From the UHGV virus genome UHGV-0103738: a stretch of 24,037 nucleotides of DNA. The stretch is one strand, 5' to 3'. The notes below the pieces were generated by a model. It saw nothing but the letters and a program-made list of their open reading frames with translations. It had not been told where the DNA came from and did not search any database. The stretch comes from a virus. This document shows positions 1,079-22,585 of the stretch, one piece after another. Numbering within the stretch: position 1 is the first letter of the stretch; each line of letters starts with the position of its first letter. The translations under genes were made by a program, and so were the position numbers.

Positions 1079-3091
1079 ATGCTTAAATTTCGCCGCGAAC
1101 TTAACGGTTACGGTGGAGTTATTAACGAAGGGCATAACGATCAATACGAATTTGAAATTGCTTTCTCCAGTGAACAGCCTTATCAGCGCCAATTCTGGGA
1201 TGAGCAAAATCAAGAAATGGTGGTATTAGATGAAATTCTGGTACATACACCGGAAGCGGTTGATCTGTCTCGTCTGAATAATAACGCTCCGTTGCTGTTT
1301 AATCATAATTTCGATAATCATTTAGGTGTCGTTTGTAACGCTCGAATCGATGCGGATAAAGTAGGCCGTGCGACCGTTAGATTCTCTAAGCATGGCACTT
1401 TGGCTAATGATATTCGTAATAAAGTCATTGAAGGTACGATGGAAAAAATTTCTGTCGGTTATGACATTAAAGAATATCACATCGATTATGCCAAAGGACA
1501 ATTGATTGTTACTAAGTTTGTTCCTTTCGAATTAAGTTTTGTTACGGTCCCGGCGGACGATTCGGTCGGTTTAAATCGCTCTCTAAATACTATCACAGTT
1601 AATTTGGAGGCTAAACGCGATATGACTAAAGAACAAATTGAAGAAATCAAAGAAGAACAAGAATCCGCTCAGGTTGAAGAAACTCCGGTAGAAGAAAATA
1701 AAGAACCGGAAGTTGAAGAAACTCAAGAGCGCCAAGTTGAAGAGAATAAAGAAGATGAAAATCTCGAAGACGGAAAAGACGCTGAACATCCTGAAAGTGT
1801 TGATGATGATAGTTCAACTGTTCGGGAAACAGAAGAAGTAAAAGAAGAACGTGAAGCTGCTCCGGTTGAAGAAGAAAAAACCGAGGAAGTGGCTGAACGT
1901 TCCGAAGAAGACGAATTAGAAATTCGCGAAATTGCACGCGAGTTAAATATTAACGAAGACGATGAAGAATTTAAACGCGCATTGGCAAATAAAGAAATTA
2001 CGCCGGAAGCATTCCGCACTAAGGCACTAAATAACATTACCAATGCTCAACGTAATAACGAACAAATTAATAAGGAACAAATCATGGAAAAAACTTTCGA
2101 TCTTAATAACGTAATCCGCTCCCTGGTAGATGGCGACGTGCTCGGCGCTAACGAAGCTGAATATTCCGCAATGGCTGCTACTGCAACTATGCAGCGTGGT
2201 CGTGCTGCTCGTGGTGGCTCTGTATTCGTTCCGGCTGCTGCTATGCGTGCTGCTGCTGATGGCAACACCAAAGCTAATCTGGTTGCTATCACTGACGAAA
2301 AACTGATGACTGAATCCTACATCGAAATGCTGTTGCCTCAGAGTGTTTTAGGCCGCCTCGGGGTGACTGTTTATAGTGGCTTGACTTCTCCGACCGCTAT
2401 TCCAAAAATGACTAAATCCAGCGTTGACGCTTTCGGATTCGTTGACGAAAATGGCGCTGCCCCCGAGTCACATGCGGAATTTTCGAACGTGAAACTGTCT
2501 CCGAAAACTTTTGCTGGTGGCAACCCGATCAGCCGTCAGTCGCTGAAAACCGTTCCGGGCATCGCTACCCTGATCACCGATCACATTAACAAATCTGTTC
2601 GGATCAAACTGGAACAACTGATTCTGTCTGATAAAGAAAATGCTCGTGGTCCGGCTGGTCTGGTTAAGCAACTGGTAGACGCTAGCCGCGTTACCAAGAA
2701 AGCTGCTTTCTCTTATAAAGACTTCCTGAAAGAAATTGCAGCACTGACTGACGCTGGCGTTCCTGCTCAGGCGATCAAGTTTGCGATGAGCGGTGCAACT
2801 GCTGCTGAACTGGAATCTACCCTGAAAGATAACGGCGTTTCCGGTTATATCATCGAAAACGGCAAACTGGCTGGTTACGAAGTAGTTACTTCTGGCGTTA
2901 TTCCGGCAGACCACATCGTTCTGGGTGACTTCTCCGGTATTACTATCGGTGAGTGGGGCGGTCTGGAACTGGATATGGATCTAACTACATACCGTGATCG
3001 TGGTGCGGTAGTGCCTCGTATCTTTGTAGATTTGGACTACGTTGTAGCACAGCCGGAAGCTCTGAAAGTTCTTCACATCTCCGCTGAATGA
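1079..3091 (+). CDS. Prohead protease / acidic scaffold-like linker / major capsid protein encoded in one reading frame (670 aa)
   Basis: Shine-Dalgarno AAAGGTGA at 1067-1074, ATG at 1079. N-terminal ~170 aa carry HK97-family prohead protease-like motifs (ISVGY, ELSFVTVPADD). A Glu/Lys-rich low-complexity segment spans ~1620-2080. The C-terminal ~335 codons switch to codons typical of highly expressed genes (ctg, cgt, ggt, gct, ttc), as expected for a major capsid protein. Stop is TGA at 3089-3091. Confidence 0.8.
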   Translation: MLKFRRELNGYGGVINEGHNDQYEFEIAFSSEQPYQRQFWDEQNQEMVVLDEILVHTPEAVDLSRLNNNAPLLFNHNFDNHLGVVCNARIDADKVGRATVRFSKHGTLANDIRNKVIEGTMEKISVGYDIKEYHIDYAKGQLIVTKFVPFELSFVTVPADDSVGLNRSLNTITVNLEAKRDMTKEQIEEIKEEQESAQVEETPVEENKEPEVEETQERQVEENKEDENLEDGKDAEHPESVDDDSSTVRETEEVKEEREAAPVEEEKTEEVAERSEEDELEIREIARELNINEDDEEFKRALANKEITPEAFRTKALNNITNAQRNNEQINKEQIMEKTFDLNNVIRSLVDGDVLGANEAEYSAMAATATMQRGRAARGGSVFVPAAAMRAAADGNTKANLVAITDEKLMTESYIEMLLPQSVLGRLGVTVYSGLTSPTAIPKMTKSSVDAFGFVDENGAAPESHAEFSNVKLSPKTFAGGNPISRQSLKTVPGIATLITDHINKSVRIKLEQLILSDKENARGPAGLVKQLVDASRVTKKAAFSYKDFLKEIAALTDAGVPAQAIKFAMSGATAAELESTLKDNGVSGYIIENGKLAGYEVVTSGVIPADHIVLGDFSGITIGEWGGLELDMDLTTYRDRGAVVPRIFVDLDYVVAQPEALKVLHISAE

Positions 3092-3217
3092 ACTCCTGTA
3101 GAACCATCTGAACCTTCCCCCGATTTGGGGGAAGAAAATCTGATTCCTGAACCGGAAGAAGAATCCCAGACGGTTAAGGCGAAAGCCACAGCTAAAAAAC
3201 AGCGTAAAACTAAAGAA
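3092..3217 (+). other. Putative in-frame TGA read-through extension of the capsid protein (42 codons, TAA at 3218-3220)
   Basis: The frame stays open for 42 codons after the TGA, encoding TPVEPSEPSPDLGEENLIPEPEEESQTVKAKATAKKQRKTKE. It ends 5 nt before a terminator hairpin. A parallel arrangement follows the tail tube gene. Confidence 0.45.
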
Positions 3218-3225
3218 TAATAATT

Positions 3226-3252
3226 AGCCCTGCCTAACGGTGGGGCTTTTTT
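3226..3252 (+). terminator. Rho-independent terminator after the capsid gene
   Basis: Stem AGCCCTGCC / GGTGGGGCT (9 bp, two G-U pairs), loop TAAC, followed by a T-run. Near-identical to the hairpin at 9094-9121. Confidence 0.75.
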
Positions 3253-3988: not shown

Positions 3989-4822
3989 ATGAATATTACA
4001 CAAGATAACTTAGATATTTTCACGGGGTCACATGTTGAAGTGTCGATCTCTAACCAGATAGACAATCAGGTCGACTTTTTCGATCCTAGCTTTAGTTCCA
4101 TCGAGAACGTTGCAGCATTTCCTACGCTAACCGAATCCACAGAGATAGAAACTCTGGAAGAGTACGATCAGGACGCTACGGGGAAACTTGCTGGTTATCG
4201 TAGACTGGAACCGACAACACTCACGTTAAACCGTGTTCTGGATGACGAACATCAAGCAATGTTGATGAAAGCGGTAGAGGATAAAACACCTTTACGCTTC
4301 CGTATGTTCTATGTTGTGAACTCTGGCTATAGTGCTGCTAACACTGGTTACTATGTCATCTATGATGCTTACGTCACATCACACAAAACCCGTGGTAGTG
4401 ATAACAAAGCTGTAACACTGGAATTTAAACTTGAACCAGATGGCGGGATTTTGGATCGCGGTATTGCAACGGAGGGTCGTCTTCTCCGTCGCGGGGATTA
4501 TGGCGTAGGTGCAGGTGTACATCCATTCACAGGTCCGATTGATAGTGATGCTTTAGCCGGAAACCGTTTCGTAACTTACAAGGGAACTGCTAGCGGTAAT
4601 CCATATTCAGCCGACACATCATTAATTCACCTTCAAGCTAATGAGCATGGCGCATGGCAATTAACCTGTAATACTTCTGGCGCACCACGTTTACGCGTCC
4701 GAAATATTCAGGAAAACGGTCGCTCTGAATGGATCAAGGTATATTCCACCAATGAGAAACCGACACCTAGCGAAATTGGCGCAGTGGCTAAGACTGACCG
4801 GATCGATTTCGGCGAATACTAA
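3989..4822 (+). CDS. Tail-tube-like paralogue with a C-terminal domain carrying a tail-fibre motif (277 aa)
   Basis: SD AAGGGGTAA. N-terminal ~150 aa align by eye with the 157-aa tail tube protein (DIFTG..., AAFPTLTESTEIETLEEY vs AGFPETGIERGTVEVKSF, LRFRMFYVV vs IQIKVEYYV). The C-terminus has KVYSTNEKPTPSEIGAVAKTD, matching KMYHEGDKPTPGEIGAYTKAE in the fibre gene. Confidence 0.6.
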   Translation: MNITQDNLDIFTGSHVEVSISNQIDNQVDFFDPSFSSIENVAAFPTLTESTEIETLEEYDQDATGKLAGYRRLEPTTLTLNRVLDDEHQAMLMKAVEDKTPLRFRMFYVVNSGYSAANTGYYVIYDAYVTSHKTRGSDNKAVTLEFKLEPDGGILDRGIATEGRLLRRGDYGVGAGVHPFTGPIDSDALAGNRFVTYKGTASGNPYSADTSLIHLQANEHGAWQLTCNTSGAPRLRVRNIQENGRSEWIKVYSTNEKPTPSEIGAVAKTDRIDFGEY

Positions 4823-4901: not shown

Positions 4902-7900
4902 ATGCAGTCGATCCAATTTAAACGCACACAAACGGCTGGTAAAAAACCAACGCCGGAACAATTATCACAGGGCGAGATCGCCTTACAACTGGCGGACCAT
5001 GTGATTTACACCAAAGATAAAAATAATAACGTAGTCCAAATTAGTGTTTCTCCAGAAAAACACGCTGAACTGAATACGAAAGTAGACACCAACAAGGTCA
5101 ACACAGATAAAGTCATTTCAGCAAATAAAACCGAAGCCGCTAATAATCTGGCTACGGCTAAAGCTGAACTTAATCAGACTATCACTTCTACCCGTGATAC
5201 TCTCAATGCTTCAATCACTGCTGGCGATACCGCAGCCAACAAGCGAATTGATGCTTTGACTACCACAGTAGGTAACAATAAAACCGAAGCGGCTAACGCT
5301 CTGGCGGCTGCTAAGACTGAACTGAATCAGACTATTACTTCAACCCGCGATACTATCAACGCGACAATTAACAAGAACAAGACAGATATTAATGCGCGAG
5401 TTGATCAGACGAATACCAACGTTACCAACTTAACGAATACTGTCGCAGCAAATAAATCAGCAATAGAAAAGACGGTAGCGGATAATAAGAAAGATGCGGA
5501 CACGAAGATCACCAATCTTACTAGTACGGTCTCTGCGAATAAGACAGCCATTGAAAGAACTGTTGCAAATAACAAGGCCAGTGCCGATGCCGCAATTGCC
5601 GCAGCTAACCAGCGAATTGATTCTATTGAAGGTAGTGCCGATGCTGCTTACATCAAGAAGAATACCAATACTAAGCATGGTGGGTATCTGTTAAGCAAGA
5701 CAGCTAACTATTTGGAAGACCAGACAGCGAGAGATCTTAACTACTTTGGTGCTTTCCGTACCAATGGTCAAGATGGACTCATGGATCTAACTCTTAATGT
5801 TCCTCATTCTGCCGGTAAAGCGCACGGTCGCGGATTTACTTTCCGTTATGCGTCTGGTGGATCTCGTGTTGAAACCTATGGTTTTGATAGAGAAGGACAG
5901 AAGAACTTTAGCTATAAGATGTATCACGAAGGTGATAAGCCGACTCCTGGCGAGATTGGCGCATACACCAAAGCCGAAGTTGATAAGATGTTTGTTAAAA
6001 ACGTCGTTATGTCTGTTCCCAATTCTAGCGAAAACGTATCTGCATATTTCAAATTGGCAACCGCAACAATTCCACAAAACGGGCGTAGTGTGTTTTTCCG
6101 TATTCATGGTGGTAATGGTTACAACGTTACGGCATATGATCAGGTTGACGTAGTAGAAATTCTTCTGCGTAGTGGTAACGATAGACCTAAAGGTCTTAAC
6201 GTAATTGCATACCGTAGAAATACAAACAAAGATTTTGAGGTATTTGCTGTCAATACTTCCGGTGATAACTATGATATCTACGTGAAATATCAGCGTTATA
6301 CCGATAACGTTATTGTCGAATATGGGAAATCTGTTTATGTAAGTTTGACGGTTTATGATACGCCGGAAGCCACGTTAATTAAACCTTCCGTTGGTGTTAT
6401 CGGTGGTCGCAACGTAACTCTTTTTAATACTGAAAATAAACGTGGTGTGTTAAGTTTTGATGATAACACACAAAACAGCTATGACATTGTTCACTTGAGT
6501 AACGATAAAGGTACTGGACGGAAATATATTCGTAAATTCCGTAGCAACTATAACGAAATGGTTTGGCATGAAACCGTTCAGGGTGCTGTATATCGTCTTG
6601 CTACCGGTGCTACAGATTCTACAGAAGTTATTAGAATTGATTCTAATAGTGCAATACCGGGTAATTATAAAGGATATGTAATTACTGGTAAAATGGAATT
6701 GCACGGTAGTGGTAATGCGATGACTTTACATCGCCAGACTGGTCAAGCTGCATATATGGCGTGGTGGGATCGTCGTGATGGTAAAAACCAACGTAGTGGT
6801 TATATCGGTCATGCGGATGGTACTAGTGATGGTTTTGTGTGGCGTAATGATGTTGGTGCTAACTCATTTGATTTGGAAGGTAGTGGACAAGTAAATTTGA
6901 CTACAGGAAAAACAAAAATTGTATATACCAATGGTCAATATTATTCCGCTAACGCTGATGCATTCCGTATGATTTACGGTAAGTATGGTGCATTCTGGCG
7001 AAATGATGGTGGTAAAGTTTATCTGTTGTCTACTGCCGAAAATGATAGATTTGGTGGTTGGAACGGAAACCGACCATTCATTTACGATTTGACTAACGGT
7101 AAAGTTACTTTAGGTGGTGATGGTAACGAAGGCGCATTAGTTCTCGAAAGAGATAGCCGTGCTGCTCGATTTGCTGGCGATACATATATCGAGAAAGGGT
7201 TTTTAACCTTCTCTGCTGGGAGAAGCGGATCTCGTGATTATATTCGATTTAATCATTGGGGTGATAGTAATAATGCCCGTGATAACGTTTTGTACCTAGA
7301 AGATAGTCAAGGTAGACATTTTAGCACAGAGCGTGCGATGGGTACTGGTGCTCTTAAAGCAAACTTCTTAGGCGATCTTGAAGTTGGTGGTAAGTTTACT
7401 TGGGGTAAAAATACAGCTACATCCAGCTTTAATATTCGTGCTTGGGGTAACGATAGTCGTAAACAAGTATTAGAATGTGGTGATGAAAGTGGTTGGCATT
7501 GGTATACCCAACGTCCGGGCGGTCCGGGTACTACGGCAATTGAGTTTGCCATCAACGGTACTGTTAAGCCTCAAGCAATTCACACTGGCGGTAATATCAC
7601 GCTTAACGGTGCTGATATTGAATTTCGTCGCACTGGTAATAAGCATATCTGGTTTAGAGATCCAACTGGATTAGAACTAGGTTTGATGTATTCTGATGAT
7701 GCTGGTGTTATTCGCTTCCGTGGTCAGAAACAAGCCCAGACGTGGAAACTTGCGGATAAGATGATTCATCTTGAATCTGGTAGCGTCGGCGGATCTGATA
7801 AAGGTTTGATTCGTGGTAACGTTTCTGGTGGTAGCTGGTCTAGTTGGCGCGATCGTGCATCCGGCTTGCAAGTTGATTGCCCTCAATCAACCGATTCCGC

Positions 7901-8488: not shown

Positions 8489-8962
8489 ATGTCTCAGCAA
8501 TTCAAAGATATTTTTACTGGTGGTCTGGTAAGTCTGTTCTATCACGCCGATACCACTAACACCGACCTTGCCGATGAAGCATACGAAGAAATTAAAGAGT
8601 GTGCTGGTTTTCCTGAAACTGGTATCGAGCGCGGTACTGTAGAAGTTAAATCCTTCTCTTCTCAGTATAACCGTAAACTGGTAGGTAAACTGAACGTTCC
8701 TGATCTGACTCTGACCGTTAACTACATTCCTGGTGATGCGGTACATGAGAAGCTCATAAAGGCTGCCGAAGACGGTACGCGTATTCAAATCAAAGTTGAA
8801 TACTATGTTGACGCCGGAAAACAGACTGGTATTCGCACTGCTTTCAACGGCTTTATTTCTAAAGTTGCTATGAACGGTGGCGATGAAGAAGTGGTAACGA
8901 AAGAGTTTACCTTTGCTGTTGATGGTGCTCCGCTGAAACAGCAAATCTTCACTGCCGGATGA
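8489..8962 (+). CDS. Major tail tube protein (157 aa)
   Basis: SD AAGGGGTAA. Strongly biased highly-expressed codon usage. Lies upstream of the chaperone and tape-measure genes and is followed by a strong terminator. Stop is TGA at 8960-8962. Confidence 0.7.
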   Translation: MSQQFKDIFTGGLVSLFYHADTTNTDLADEAYEEIKECAGFPETGIERGTVEVKSFSSQYNRKLVGKLNVPDLTLTVNYIPGDAVHEKLIKAAEDGTRIQIKVEYYVDAGKQTGIRTAFNGFISKVAMNGGDEEVVTKEFTFAVDGAPLKQQIFTAG

Positions 8963-9085
8963 ACTAACGAAGAACTTCCTTTACCAGAACCGGAACCACT
9001 GCCGGAACATGAAGCGGTGGTGATTCCAGAAGTAGAAGAAGTTACGGCGAAAGCCACAGCAAAACGAGGCCGCAAGGCTAAGAAT
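8963..9085 (+). other. Putative in-frame TGA read-through extension of the tail tube protein (41 codons, TAA at 9086-9088)
   Basis: Open in frame after the TGA, encoding TNEELPLPEPEPLPEHEAVVIPEVEEVTAKATAKRGRKAKN. Same TGA-ACT context and same Pro/Glu-linker plus basic-tail architecture as the capsid extension. Ends 5 nt before the terminator. Confidence 0.45.
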
Positions 9086-9093
9086 TAATTTTA

Positions 9094-9121
9094 AGCCCTG
9101 CCTTAATGGTGGGGCTTTTTT
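9094..9121 (+). terminator. Rho-independent terminator after the tail tube gene
   Basis: Stem AGCCCTGCC / GGTGGGGCT, loop TTAAT, then a T-run. Same stem as the terminator at 3226-3252. Confidence 0.75.
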
Positions 9122-9685: not shown

Positions 9686-9994
9686 ATGAATATTAATGAA
9701 ATGCTGAAAGCTCTTTCTCCGAAACGTGAATCTCTGACCATCGGCGGATTCACGTTCTATGCTCGCCCTATGTCAGTAAAAGAATTTAACGAACATGTTT
9801 TCAATACTGATAAAGAAGACCGTGATGAACGTTCGATTCTTCGTTGTATTGAAGATGAAGACGGTAAACCGGTATTTGAATCTATGGAACAAGTTAAGGC
9901 ACTGTATACTAACGTCCGCAGTGAATTAATCGGTTTGGTTGCTCAAGCGTCATTGATGCAAGATCCGGCAGTAATTGAAAACGAGGTAAAGTAA
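9686..9994 (+). CDS. Tail assembly chaperone (lambda gpG-like by position, 102 aa)
   Basis: SD AGAGGAAA. Small acidic protein immediately upstream of the tape measure gene, with a second ORF in the -1 frame overlapping its 3' end. Confidence 0.55.
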   Translation: MNINEMLKALSPKRESLTIGGFTFYARPMSVKEFNEHVFNTDKEDRDERSILRCIEDEDGKPVFESMEQVKALYTNVRSELIGLVAQASLMQDPAVIENEVK

Positions 9995-10023
9995 ACCCGC
10001 TTCTGAATTTCTATTTTCGGCAA

Positions 10024-10374
10024 ATGATGCGATCGGGGCTTAGTAAAGATGAAATGGATAATATGCCAATCACTCTGTTTTGGAAATTATACATTTTCGA
10101 CACCTACTTAGAACCACAAAGCCCCGCGTTTCATGATATGCAGAATGCGATGTTGCAATATTCCATGTATATGACGTCGCAAGGAATGACTCGTGAAACT
10201 GCAAAGAAACTCAAGCCTAGCCAATTCCAATTAATTAGAGAAGAAAAACTCTTTAAAACTAAAGAAGAACTGGAAGAACTTGCACGCAAGAAAGAAGAAG
10301 AACGTAAAGCTGCAACATTGAGCATGTTCGATCCATCTTTGCTTGAGAAACTCAGAAGCGCACAAACGGGGTAA
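10024..10374 (+). CDS. Tail assembly chaperone -1 frame segment (gpT-like; frame open from 9979)
   Basis: ORF in the -1 frame relative to 9686..9994. No SD upstream of ATG 10024, and the frame is open back to 9979, overlapping the last five codons of the upstream gene. This fits expression as a frameshift fusion. Confidence 0.5.
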   Translation: MMRSGLSKDEMDNMPITLFWKLYIFDTYLEPQSPAFHDMQNAMLQYSMYMTSQGMTRETAKKLKPSQFQLIREEKLFKTKEELEELARKKEEERKAATLSMFDPSLLEKLRSAQTG

Positions 10375-20856: not shown

Positions 20857-22536
20857 TTAAATTCCAAATTCTTGTAATGGACCTGGTATTTCTTCTTCTG
20901 GTTTCCAGTTCTTATCTGTCAGCATGTCTAAACATGGATGCAGAACAAGCCCGTTACTCTCCAGAATCTGCCTATCATTGATAGTCTTCAAATCAACGAA
21001 GATCCGGCCTTTCCTCGGTCCTCTTGAATTTTCTATTACAACTCTCTGGGTCTTGCCATCGATGTATTCCAGTACAAACAAGTTTTTGTACTTGTCAATC
21101 CTGCTACACCCGATCCGTTTTAGAGCTTGCTTAATCTTAAACCGGACCTTAATGCGATCCTCGTTGTAAACATCTTCTAAATCAAATTCTGCGAGCTTCT
21201 CCCAGCCTTGAGAGTCAACAGAATACATTTCCTCTTCTGCCATCTTAAGTTGATTGTAGAGTGTTTCACGCTCGCTATTGAGGGTAGTAATCTGATCGGC
21301 TAGCTCCTTCGTTGCTCCTGTCATAGCAGAAAGGGTAATCAGGTTATCAATCTTGCGTGATATTTCATCAATCTGTACTTTCAAAGCCGGAACCGGATTA
21401 GCCTTATCTTCAGCAATCCAGATTTTATCAGCCAGCAATTGCAATACAGCTTTCTCTAATTGGTCGCCGCGAAAACTCCAGTTTGTATGCACACATTCAA
21501 TACGACTAGAGCGCATTGCATCGCATGAATAACGATATTGGTTAGGCCGTCTGTTTGTTCCTTTCACCTTAACCATAGCGGAACCGCAATGTTCACATTT
21601 CAATAGACCAACACCACTAAGCAAGGGAATAGGTTTAGCTTCTTCTTTGTCTCCAAAGTTACATGCTCTAACACCAATGCTTTTCTTAAGGTGATAAAAC
21701 TCAGCGTCATCTAGCACACGAGGATAATAATCCTTTAACTCATACTTAACGCCATCTACAGAGATTTCCTTGATACCAATCAAAGCGCGGGTATGGAACA
21801 ACCTTTCAATCATTGCCCGTGACCAGTTTGAATGCCTCTTGTGACTTGCGGCTGGTGGTGGTGTGTATGTCGCGTTAAGGTGATCCAGTATCTCGGCGGT
21901 TGACCGTCCATTCCTGCGTAATTCCACAACTTCCTGAACAATAGGGAAGAAGACCGGATGAGGAAGCACATAACCAGATGTGGTATCAGTCCACCACATA
22001 TTCTTTCCAATTTCCTCGATTGCAACAGCCGGATTTTGTGGATTTTCTTGATGAGCTTTAATCTTAATCAGTGCGCTTGAGTTAGTACGATTGCGCTTAG
22101 TCTGGCTTTCCTCATTACCACGGATGAATAAAAGGATGGAGAACATCAGGTCCATCGGGTTAGCGGTAACAGTATCAAGCGAGTAGATCTTGTTATCCAT
22201 GCCAGTAACAATGGTTATCCCCCTACGGATGATTGAAAGGAATAACTCCTGTGCACTGACAATATCGGCACGGGATAAACGGTCCAAGTTTTCGATGAAT
22301 AGCCAGCTACCAACAGGAACGGATCTACCTATTGCATCAAGGAAACGAGATAGCGCCCCTGTTTTGGAGTTAGCACCCTTAAACGCAGATACACCCAGAT
22401 CCTGATAATCATTTACCAGTTCAAGGTCATACTTTACCGCAATCTCTCTAGCCATCCTGATTTGTCGTTCATAACTCGAACCATCATTCTGACGCATAGA
22501 CGAGAAGCGAATATACGAATACAGTTTAGTTTTCAT
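20857..22536 (-). CDS. Large serine recombinase (integrase/resolvase family, ~559 aa from ATG 22536)
   Basis: N-terminal catalytic motif YIRFSSMRQ (Arg/Ser/Gln spacing of serine recombinases) and ENLDRLSR. Central recombinase region. Cys cluster CEHCGSAMV...YRYSCDAM...ECVH (zinc-ribbon-like), then a coiled coil. Track start is a TTG at 22551; the first ATG is at 22536. Confidence 0.85.
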   Translation of the reverse strand: MKTKLYSYIRFSSMRQNDGSSYERQIRMAREIAVKYDLELVNDYQDLGVSAFKGANSKTGALSRFLDAIGRSVPVGSWLFIENLDRLSRADIVSAQELFLSIIRRGITIVTGMDNKIYSLDTVTANPMDLMFSILLFIRGNEESQTKRNRTNSSALIKIKAHQENPQNPAVAIEEIGKNMWWTDTTSGYVLPHPVFFPIVQEVVELRRNGRSTAEILDHLNATYTPPPAASHKRHSNWSRAMIERLFHTRALIGIKEISVDGVKYELKDYYPRVLDDAEFYHLKKSIGVRACNFGDKEEAKPIPLLSGVGLLKCEHCGSAMVKVKGTNRRPNQYRYSCDAMRSSRIECVHTNWSFRGDQLEKAVLQLLADKIWIAEDKANPVPALKVQIDEISRKIDNLITLSAMTGATKELADQITTLNSERETLYNQLKMAEEEMYSVDSQGWEKLAEFDLEDVYNEDRIKVRFKIKQALKRIGCSRIDKYKNLFVLEYIDGKTQRVVIENSRGPRKGRIFVDLKTINDRQILESNGLVLHPCLDMLTDKNWKPEEEIPGPLQEFGI

Positions 22537-22545
22537 ACCATTTCC

Positions 22546-22585
22546 AAACAAAAACGCCCCTACCGCGTATTATAACGATAGGGGC
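22546..22585 (-). terminator. Hairpin with T-run immediately upstream of the recombinase start (– strand)
   Basis: 10-bp stem whose one imperfect position is a G-U pair only in the – strand transcript, followed on the – strand by GTTTTTGTTT. The loop contains TTATAAT. Confidence 0.5.

Follow-up and report, generated by a model that had tools for sequence, protein, structure and literature searches.

Why should the major capsid gene of a tailed phage end at a UGA codon that is followed, in the same frame, by 42 further sense codons? The question is raised by the 24,037-nucleotide (nt) viral genome UHGV-0103738, called the window below, which is the late (structural) region of a siphovirus-like Escherichia coli prophage and in which the tail-tube gene ends in the same manner. 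We think it fairly likely that both extensions are translated by readthrough of the UGA stop codon and selected as such. A small share of the capsid and tail-tube proteins would probably be made in this way with an extra flexible, positively charged tail. Our support for UGA readthrough is comparative genomics only; we infer the occurrence and level of readthrough, the inserted amino acid, the incorporation of the long products into virions, their outward display and their function.

The features at the capsid gene, where aa stands for amino acids and ORF for open reading frame, are the following.

1079-3088, plus strand: ORF of 670 aa, a prohead protease-acidic scaffold-HK97-type capsid fusion recognized with Pfam and PHROG; the standard product, ending at UGA
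3089-3092, plus strand: proposed recoding site, a UGA stop with a 3' A (GAA-UGA-ACU), with TGA-A invariant in 48/48 junctions
3092-3217, plus strand: 42-codon in-frame extension, an acidic Pro/Glu linker then a basic tail TVKAKATAKKQRKTKE, with frame 0 open in relatives
3114-3134, plus strand: predicted 8-bp G+C-rich hairpin CUUCCCCC-GAUUU-GGGGGAAG, inside the extension and 22 nt past the UGA
3218-3223, plus strand: tandem TAA-TAA closing the extension
3226-3252, plus strand: intrinsic terminator with a 9-bp stem, a loop and T6; the stem (3226-3247) starts 5 nt past the first TAA

The capsid ORF holds an S78 protease and an HK97-type capsid protein in a single reading frame, Pfam placing Peptidase_S78 at residues 40-162 (E = 1.8e-10) and Phage_capsid at residues 414-666 (E = 6.6e-25). 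Its PHROG matches are families 617 (major head protein) and 4523, and its nearest solved structure by sequence is the capsid of roseophage R4C (8GTA), whose paper gives no indication of whether the capsid C-terminus lies inside or outside. Between the protease and capsid domains, the scaffold (delta) at 1635-1880 is extremely acidic, with Glu-rich internal repeats (family D1, units of about 47 nt), the extension's basic tail being of opposite charge.

The original prediction had placed after TGA 3089-3091 a run of 42 open codons with a terminator 5 nt further on, and we confirmed both these coordinates and the frame. The 42 sense codons translate into TPVEPSEPSPDLGEENLIPEPEEESQTVKAKATAKKQRKTKE. 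A Pro/Glu-rich linker and a basic terminus had also been claimed, and the charges agree: the first 26 residues are proline-rich with a net charge of -9, and the last 16 residues have a net charge of +6. The extension belongs to no Pfam family, the peptide has no match in a collection of 5.8 billion protein sequences, and no sequence or fold homology was detected between this 42-aa low-complexity stretch and the readthrough domain of the Qbeta A1 protein. The tails KKQRKTKE and KRGRKAKN of the window gave no Pfam hit to the AT-hook (PF02178), and the KK(V/A)GRPPKAK tails of relatives (for example L002, 4060-4092) scored 14.2-14.7 bits for AT_hook, under the cut-off of 17.4.

After the capsid UGA, only a few codons can be read in the +1 and -1 frames before a stop, and no slippery heptamer was seen before the stop when the sequence was read by eye. 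We also considered an independent small ORF and rejected it, since no conserved in-frame start codon was seen in the extensions, likewise read by eye. The ATG that overlaps the stop in GAATGA would start an out-of-frame ORF of 7 codons, and it is missing from the GAG-, GAC-, TCT-, GCT- and GGT-TGA variants.

How much does an open frame of this length mean? On a single sequence it is within chance: about 10% of shuffles of the capsid interval and 14-15% of those of the tube interval stay open, 4% of all stop-to-stop runs in the window reach at least 42 codons, and two other window genes have at least 42 open codons past their stops. Its significance thus comes only from the comparison with relatives. 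For this comparison 48 capsid 3' junctions were assembled from IMG/VR contigs, (gut) metagenomes, complete E. coli genomes and one Logan/NCBI contig; they include prophages of E. coli, Shigella and E. albertii, with capsid identities of 76-97%.

All 48 junctions keep TGA-A followed by an uninterrupted zero-frame extension, and the codon preceding the TGA varies between GAA, GAG and GAC. The extensions comprise 27 unique sequences of 27, 28, 33, 42, 43, 44 or 45 codons, and three different capsid C-termini precede them (...LHISAE, ...LKIGEE and ...VVQKKVD). They are mosaics of alternative linkers and of the basic tails KKQRKTKE, KKERKTKAK, KK(V/A)GRPPKAK(E) and KRGRKPKE. The linkers cannot be aligned with one another, and the succession of an acidic linker and a basic tail is kept despite this sequence replacement (QRKTKE, ERKTKAK, VGRPPKAK, RGRKPKE, RGRKAKN), the composition being conserved and the sequence only loosely so.

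These sequences vary in length only by whole codons. Frame 0 contains no stop in any of 43 unique extensions (27 from capsid and 16 from tube genes); the other two frames were checked in 17 unique capsid and 15 unique tube sequences and have 1-7 stops each. The distinct gap runs in the capsid and tube extensions are multiples of 3 in 8 cases out of 8 (48, 27, 9, 6, 6, 3, 3 and 3), versus 4 of 15 in the adjacent non-coding DNA, taken as the 75 nt directly downstream (hypergeometric p = 0.001). Stop codons or frame-breaking indels in related genomes, which the original prediction had named as the findings to look for against it, were seen in none of the 48 capsid junctions, whose extensions differ in length by whole codons.

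The stop itself is as constant as the frame. When the database was searched with the capsid, a tryptophan and the extension joined together, the best 120 capsid homologues all (120/120) stopped at UGA, with no sense codon at this position. This search thus gave no fused (sense-codon) variant among close homologues; a search with the extension alone matched nothing. Since no sense codon replaces the stop and the peptide is absent from the protein collection, the stop and the downstream frame are both maintained. A dead remnant should decay, and a tail needed on every subunit should lose the stop. The joint maintenance of stop and frame is therefore the signature that would be expected of dosage-limited readthrough.

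Two side observations concern these junctions. In three prophages, from E. coli strains PE15, 39EVA and RMDEC332 (L094-L096), DNA similarity to the window sets in shortly before the capsid stop. The 3' end of their capsid gene is another one (...VVQKKVD), and it runs into the extension, terminator and subsequent genes that the window also has; the boundary between stop and extension thus appears to act as the border of a recombination module. One IMG/VR contig (L031) has, around position 3120, a 1-nt indel early in the capsid domain, which is either an assembly error or the mark of a pseudogene; in the main capsid frame, this contig still shows TGA-A and an undamaged extension of 28 codons.

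The tail-tube gene carries a second copy of the module.

8489-8959, plus strand: major tail (tube) protein ORF of 157 aa, PHROG 158 major tail protein (E = 7.5e-22)
8960-8963, plus strand: second proposed recoding site, GGA-UGA-ACU, with TGA-ACT in 25/25 tube junctions
8963-9085, plus strand: 41-codon in-frame tube extension TNEELPLPEPEPLPEHEAVVIPEVEEVTAKATAKRGRKAKN, with TAA at 9086-9088, open in 16 unique relatives
9093-9121, plus strand: terminator past the tube extension, homologous to 3226-3252 and near-identical to this capsid-side terminator

In a relative from E. coli H2, the Prokaryotic Genome Annotation Pipeline (PGAP) names this gene 'phage tail tube protein' and leaves both post-stop intervals, capsid and tube, empty; no solved relative of the tube protein was detectable by sequence. 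The original prediction had noted that the capsid stop context matches the GGA-TGA-ACT of the tail-tube gene. The match is real (TGA at 8960-8962), and the tube gene has in addition its own extension of 41 codons. TGA-ACT is found in all 25 tube junctions, each time with an open extension, whose length is 36, 39 or 41 codons (16 unique sequences), and the codon preceding the TGA is GGA, GGT, GCT or TCT. The tube extension consists of an acidic linker and TAKATAKRGRKAKN, with the basic tail motif TAKATAKR as in the capsid copy. The two modules share a direct repeat over their final 80 nt, 71% identical; the capsid-side terminator falls in this 80-nt repeat (D3), whose second copy lies at 9041-9120.

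The choice of stop codon is also peculiar to these two genes. Out of 24 genes in the window, 21 stop at TAA, 1 at TAG and 2 at TGA, and the two TGA stops, each in the form TGA-ACT, are those of the capsid and tail-tube genes, whose products are the structural proteins needed in the largest amounts. Altogether, the zero-frame ORF is maintained in diverged relatives, and the stop context UGA-A is conserved in 48/48 capsid and 25/25 tube junctions while the preceding codons vary; that this context is leaky is prior knowledge. A 3' A reportedly makes UGA leaky in E. coli (Engelberg-Kulka 1981, a reference given in PMC10570021).

We also analyzed the RNA that follows the UGA. The minimum free energy fold of 3080-3225 is far more stable than those of shuffled sequences (z = -4.9), as is that of a 28-codon variant (z = -4.8). 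All 17 long-variant sequences have the stem at 3114-3134 unchanged, and a deletion of 27 nt has left it in place in L096. The class of short variants has a different hairpin, of 11 bp, 10 nt past the UGA. In these short variants, three compensatory double changes are found across three hairpins in 5 distinct sequences, with 97.9% of cells paired and a covariation score reached by 5/500 shuffles. The short variant of 27-28 codons (L002, L008, L009, L031 and L097) shows three small hairpins, two of them with GAAA loops. An element GGC-GAAA-GCC is present in the window at about 3177-3186 and at 9045-9054. No family in Rfam matched at its gathering score or with E <= 1. Viral readthrough signals typically combine a leaky stop with a maintained ORF and a conserved structure 3' of the stop; for the hairpins further downstream, a role in mRNA 3'-end stability or in terminator function is equally conceivable.

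An interesting comparison comes from a sister clade of capsids of about 40-42% identity, found in Escherichia phage DCP80 and in several IMG/VR and metagenome contigs (loci L034-L040, L074-L078 and L081-L091, and L001, which is DCP80, at 6985-7100). These loci have a homologous protease-scaffold-capsid gene, and like the window a short Ala/Lys-rich C-terminal tail followed by a terminator, but their tail either forms part of the capsid ORF or lies in the -1 frame, with TAA as the stop of the main frame, and the tail-tube genes are without any extension. The fused in-frame Ala/Lys tails end the protein as ...EKGTPAEAKAAKQ, ...PAEAPAEAKAGK, ...GEAEAGETRKAK or ...PAEVKAALKASA. In the genes that stop at TAA, an open -1 frame extends from an A-run a few codons ahead of the stop to shortly before the terminator and would encode KAKAKAKAKAETAE, SPAKVKKPRALKVK, AAPVRKPRALKVTK or APVKKSKSASG. 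The canonical E. coli -1 heptamer A_AAA_AAG stands in the correct register in three loci (L077, L078 and L081) and A_AAA_AAA in two (L037 and L087), these heptamers lying 3-4 codons before the TAA; the others have only five A's or A_AAG. Hairpins are predicted downstream of these A-run sites, and the -1 frames end 3-6 nt before the terminator, with the -1 ORF of DCP80 ending 22 nt before the stem. The A-runs and -1 frames suggest an unannotated -1 frameshifting. That the same type of tail may be reached by fusion, by a -1 frame or by readthrough argues that selection acts on the basic C-terminal tail of these capsids as a feature of the protein, with a dose that would be set by the decoding route.

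On this basis, we propose the following mechanism. Most ribosomes would terminate at the UGA via release factor 2 (RF2), giving the standard capsid and tube proteins, and late transcripts would end or pause at the terminators past the capsid and tube genes. A minority of ribosomes would decode UGA-A by a near-cognate tRNA, most likely Trp-tRNATrp, as for the Qbeta coat and A1 proteins. They would run on for 42 (capsid) or 41 (tube) codons to the TAA just upstream of the intrinsic terminator, which would add 43 and 42 residues, that is +4.8 kDa to the capsid and +4.7 kDa to the tube protein. The predicted Trp junction peptides are VLHISAE-W-TPVEPSEPSPDLGEENLIPEPEEESQTVK for the capsid and QQIFTAG-W-TNEELPLPEPEPLPEHEAVVIPEVEEVTAK for the tube. 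The stable hairpins 3' of the UGA would probably be part of the signal, or else stabilize the 3' ends of the two most abundant late mRNAs. UGA is known to be read by Trp-tRNATrp in competition with RF2, at a basal level of 1e-3 to 1e-2 (PMC10570021).

The long isoforms would co-assemble with the standard subunits, and the few copies per virion would each present a flexible acidic Pro-rich linker with a Lys/Arg/Ala-rich tip. By analogy with T7 10B, SPP1 gp17.1* and TpeX of the 936 phages, we infer that these tails would project outward from the virion. One could speculate that they provide a weak electrostatic adhesion to anionic surfaces, like the accessory immunoglobulin (Ig)-like/FN3 extensions of other phages. 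More broadly, UGA-A, the structured RNA, the linker/tail coding stretch and the terminator may form a portable cassette producing minor capsid and tube isoforms in a widespread E. coli prophage family, the tail being delivered interchangeably by fusion, by -1 frameshift at A_AAA_AAG or by readthrough within one capsid lineage; on this wider proposal we are evenly divided.

Several observations weigh against selected readthrough. The original prediction had expected the open frame to be conserved with a synonymous bias; the frame is conserved, and the bias is weak. By the Nei-Gojobori method, the ratio of nonsynonymous to synonymous differences (pN/pS) is 0.67 in the capsid extension versus 0.26 in the capsid body, and 0.42 in the tube extension versus 0.16 in the tube body. 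The variable sites are spread evenly over the codon positions, with no third-position excess. On these figures the peptide is only loosely constrained, as expected of a disordered linker but equally of a non-coding element. Furthermore, the relatives are closely related (pS of about 0.15 in the extension), so that the absence of stops is, taken alone, weak evidence. The tail-tube copy cannot count as fully independent evidence either, since copying the cassette together with its stop would by itself put it in frame; what is independent is that the two diverged copies are each open and change only by whole codons.

The RNA raises further difficulties of the same kind. The long-variant hairpin is without covariation, all its pairs being invariant, and the spacing between UGA and hairpin differs, 22 nt in the window variant versus 10 nt in the short one. 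The TAKATAK motif encodes the GGC-GAAA-GCC hairpin, so that part of its conservation lies at the RNA level. In L097 this element has become GGA-GAAA-TCC, which keeps the pairing and changes the peptide from AKA to EKS. From the hairpin data as a whole, RNA structure is under selection in addition to the frame. Finally, RF2 of natural E. coli isolates is more active than that of K-12, and readthrough could thus fall well below 1%.

One may wonder whether the extensions are translated at all. One alternative, which we consider unlikely, is an untranslated structured 3' untranslated region (UTR)/terminator cassette, acting in stabilization or processing of the two most abundant late messages, with a frame open by shared ancestry. 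Such a 3' UTR would agree with the 10-15% of shuffles that stay open, with a fold far stabler than shuffles and compensatory changes in three hairpins, and with the lack of third-position bias, and a cassette including its stop codon could be copied as a unit. However, it gives no reason for indels that are all multiples of 3 when those alongside are so in 4 cases of 15, or for a frame 0 free of stops in 43 unique sequences when the other frames have 1-7 stops each in the 32 checked. TGA-A is moreover invariant in a genome that otherwise uses TAA, a protein-like composition is kept across replaced segments, the sister clade has tails fused to its capsids, and no Rfam family matches.

Another possibility, which we hold to be improbable as well, is that readthrough was selected for regulation and that the peptide is incidental. 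Ribosomes that pass the UGA would reach a point 5 nt before the terminator and occlude it, or keep RNA polymerase coupled, and the fraction of readthrough would be linked to that of transcripts continuing into the low-copy head-completion and tail-assembly genes. In both copies, indeed, the extension ORF stops 4-5 nt short of the terminator stem, and the sister-clade -1 frames likewise end 3-6 nt before theirs; frame and length class are kept although the constraint on amino acids is weak, and the RNA hairpins are kept even where amino acids change. On the other hand, closeness to a terminator is not special, as ordinary genes of these phages have their stops a few nt ahead of one too, and the DCP80 -1 ORF ends 22 nt before the stem. 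Openness alone would need no particular composition, whereas an acidic linker and basic tail recur in non-homologous replacements and in the sister clade, even in fused form. Such a regulatory role could coexist with a structural one.

The extension could also be the decaying remnant of a once-fused C-terminal tail, cut by a nonsense mutation and whose expression is no longer meaningful. We judge this very unlikely. The fused tails of sister-clade capsids and the relaxed constraint on the peptide would be in line with it, but a remnant should have accumulated stops and frameshifts, and none were seen; the same TGA-A is found on capsids down to 76% identity and behind three capsid C-termini. 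The tube gene has the same arrangement and sister-clade tube genes are without a tail, which argues for a gain rather than a loss. The stop-codon usage and the recurring composition count against a remnant too.

Lastly, a specific decoding of the UGA, as selenocysteine through a hairpin resembling a selenocysteine insertion sequence (SECIS), by a suppressor tRNA or under an alternative code, is hardly credible: a hairpin does follow the UGA, but its sequence, loop and distance (10 versus 22 nt) vary between variants, contrary to a SECIS element, no family in Rfam scores above threshold (among them the SECIS models, to the extent that the library has them), and the window is without a tRNA gene. 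As to a suppressor tRNA in relatives, the single ARAGORN call in a related prophage, a 91-nt 'tRNA-Glu' within a coding region, is likely a false positive. An alternative genetic code with TGA as sense was rejected: all the other long ORFs are uninterrupted under table 11, none of them contains a TGA internally, and TGA serves as a stop just twice.

If the extensions are made by readthrough, the closest mechanistic relative is the Qbeta coat/A1 pair, as a mechanistic analogue only. In Qbeta, as proposed here, the UGA that ends the major coat gene is occasionally read as Trp, giving a minor C-terminally extended coat protein present in a few copies per virion. A1 is formed at about 1/15, and its extension begins with a proline-rich (polyproline II) stretch (PMC8067240). 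Qbeta is, however, a single-stranded RNA phage with an unrelated coat fold and a folded extension of 196 aa required for infectivity, whereas we deal here with a tailed double-stranded DNA (dsDNA) prophage, an HK97-type capsid, a 42-aa low-complexity extension and a device also borne by the tail-tube gene.

Among tailed phages, T7 and T3 (10A/10B) likewise make a minor longer isoform of an HK97-fold capsid protein, from a short extension ORF placed after the main stop and before a strong terminator; the extension of T7 does not form an Ig-like domain (PMC5009743). T7 10B is nevertheless reached by a -1 frameshift, while the present extension lies in the zero frame past a UGA, with the other frames closed. 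In the Listeria phages PSA, A118 and A500, capsid (Cps) and tail (Tsh) proteins are both C-terminally extended by recoding near the stop, as here (PMC5009743), but by +1 or -1 frameshifts (e.g. CCC_UGA shifty stops, pseudoknot) and in Gram-positive hosts; no change of frame is involved in the window. A fraction of the tube subunits is also C-terminally extended in SPP1 (gp17.1*) and in the lactococcal 936 group (MTP-TpeX, MTP being the major tail protein), with extensions that lie outside the tube, are dispensable or accessory, and are thought to aid adhesion (PMC8718954, PMC4759559). These are folded FN3 or carbohydrate-binding domains reached by +1 frameshift (CCC.UAG in 936), compared with an unstructured acidic/basic tail of 41 aa past UGA-A in the window. 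We examined the 'read-through' of lactococcal 936 TpeX as a precedent and discarded it, the source describing a +1 frameshift.

The frameshift class does not accommodate the window. A +1 or -1 extension at a slippery site is found only in the sister clade (A_AAA_AAG), and a folded Ig-like, FN3 or carbohydrate-binding module is not indicated, with no domain hit and a length of 41-42 aa that is too short. Capsid and tail extensions of tailed phages are known by frameshifting, not by readthrough (PMC5009743, PMC8718954, PMC4759559). A full-text literature search found no tailed phage with a described readthrough of the stop codon of its capsid or tail-tube gene, a result that is provisional, the coverage being incomplete.

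Genuine programmed stop-codon readthrough is rare in bacteria, and its textbook case is the RNA phage Qbeta. If our proposal is true, this would be the first case that we found described for the structural genes of a tailed dsDNA phage. It would add a second decoding route to the repertoire of these phages, and one that is swappable with fusion and -1 frameshift within one gene family, thus offering a natural experiment on how the decoding route sets the dose of a virion decoration. Two virion components would also have been missed by annotation pipelines, since PGAP leaves both intervals empty and the peptide is in no database protein. In practice, the module would be a compact, E. coli-native candidate readthrough signal and a natural low-copy display site on the head and tail of a temperate coliphage. 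It would also serve as a warning that 'intergenic' gaps past highly expressed phage genes can be coding.

As to the rest of the window, the gene order runs from a lambda-family portal to the fused prohead protease/acidic scaffold/HK97-type major capsid gene (1079-3091), head-tail genes, a 1176-aa fibre protein, the major tail protein (8489-8962), a tail chaperone and the tape measure protein, then to tail tip and lysis genes and a serine recombinase on the opposite strand. About 55 complete E. coli chromosomes hold the prophage at 80-97% identity. No cultured-phage relative was matched when the region was compared by megablast with 50,697 phage genomes, the best cultured-phage protein match being Escherichia phage DCP80 at just 40% identity, and two scans of GTDB species-representative genomes gave no relative. 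In the E. coli H2 relative (L041, NZ_CP028733), which is 97% identical in this region, the prophage is integrated in hicB, which is split into two pseudogene halves, and adjoins a large serine recombinase; the same recombinase gene is found in the window at 20857-22551 on the minus strand.

Two further observations were made on the tail genes. A tail assembly chaperone gene (phrog_344) and, behind it, an ORF in the -1 frame occupy 9686-10374, in the usual G/GT arrangement. A scan of this region gave no canonical X_XXY_YYZ heptamer, and the -1 frame opens just about 20 nt before the stop, near GGU_AAA_G-UAA, so that the shift site, if any, would be non-canonical. Just upstream of the 1176-aa fibre gene, an ORF of 277 aa (3989-4822) matches the major-tail-protein family phrog_158 over its N-terminal 150 residues, which would make it a second tube-like paralogue with an additional C-terminal part; the neighbouring fibre is named 'head spike fiber' by PGAP in one relative (L098).

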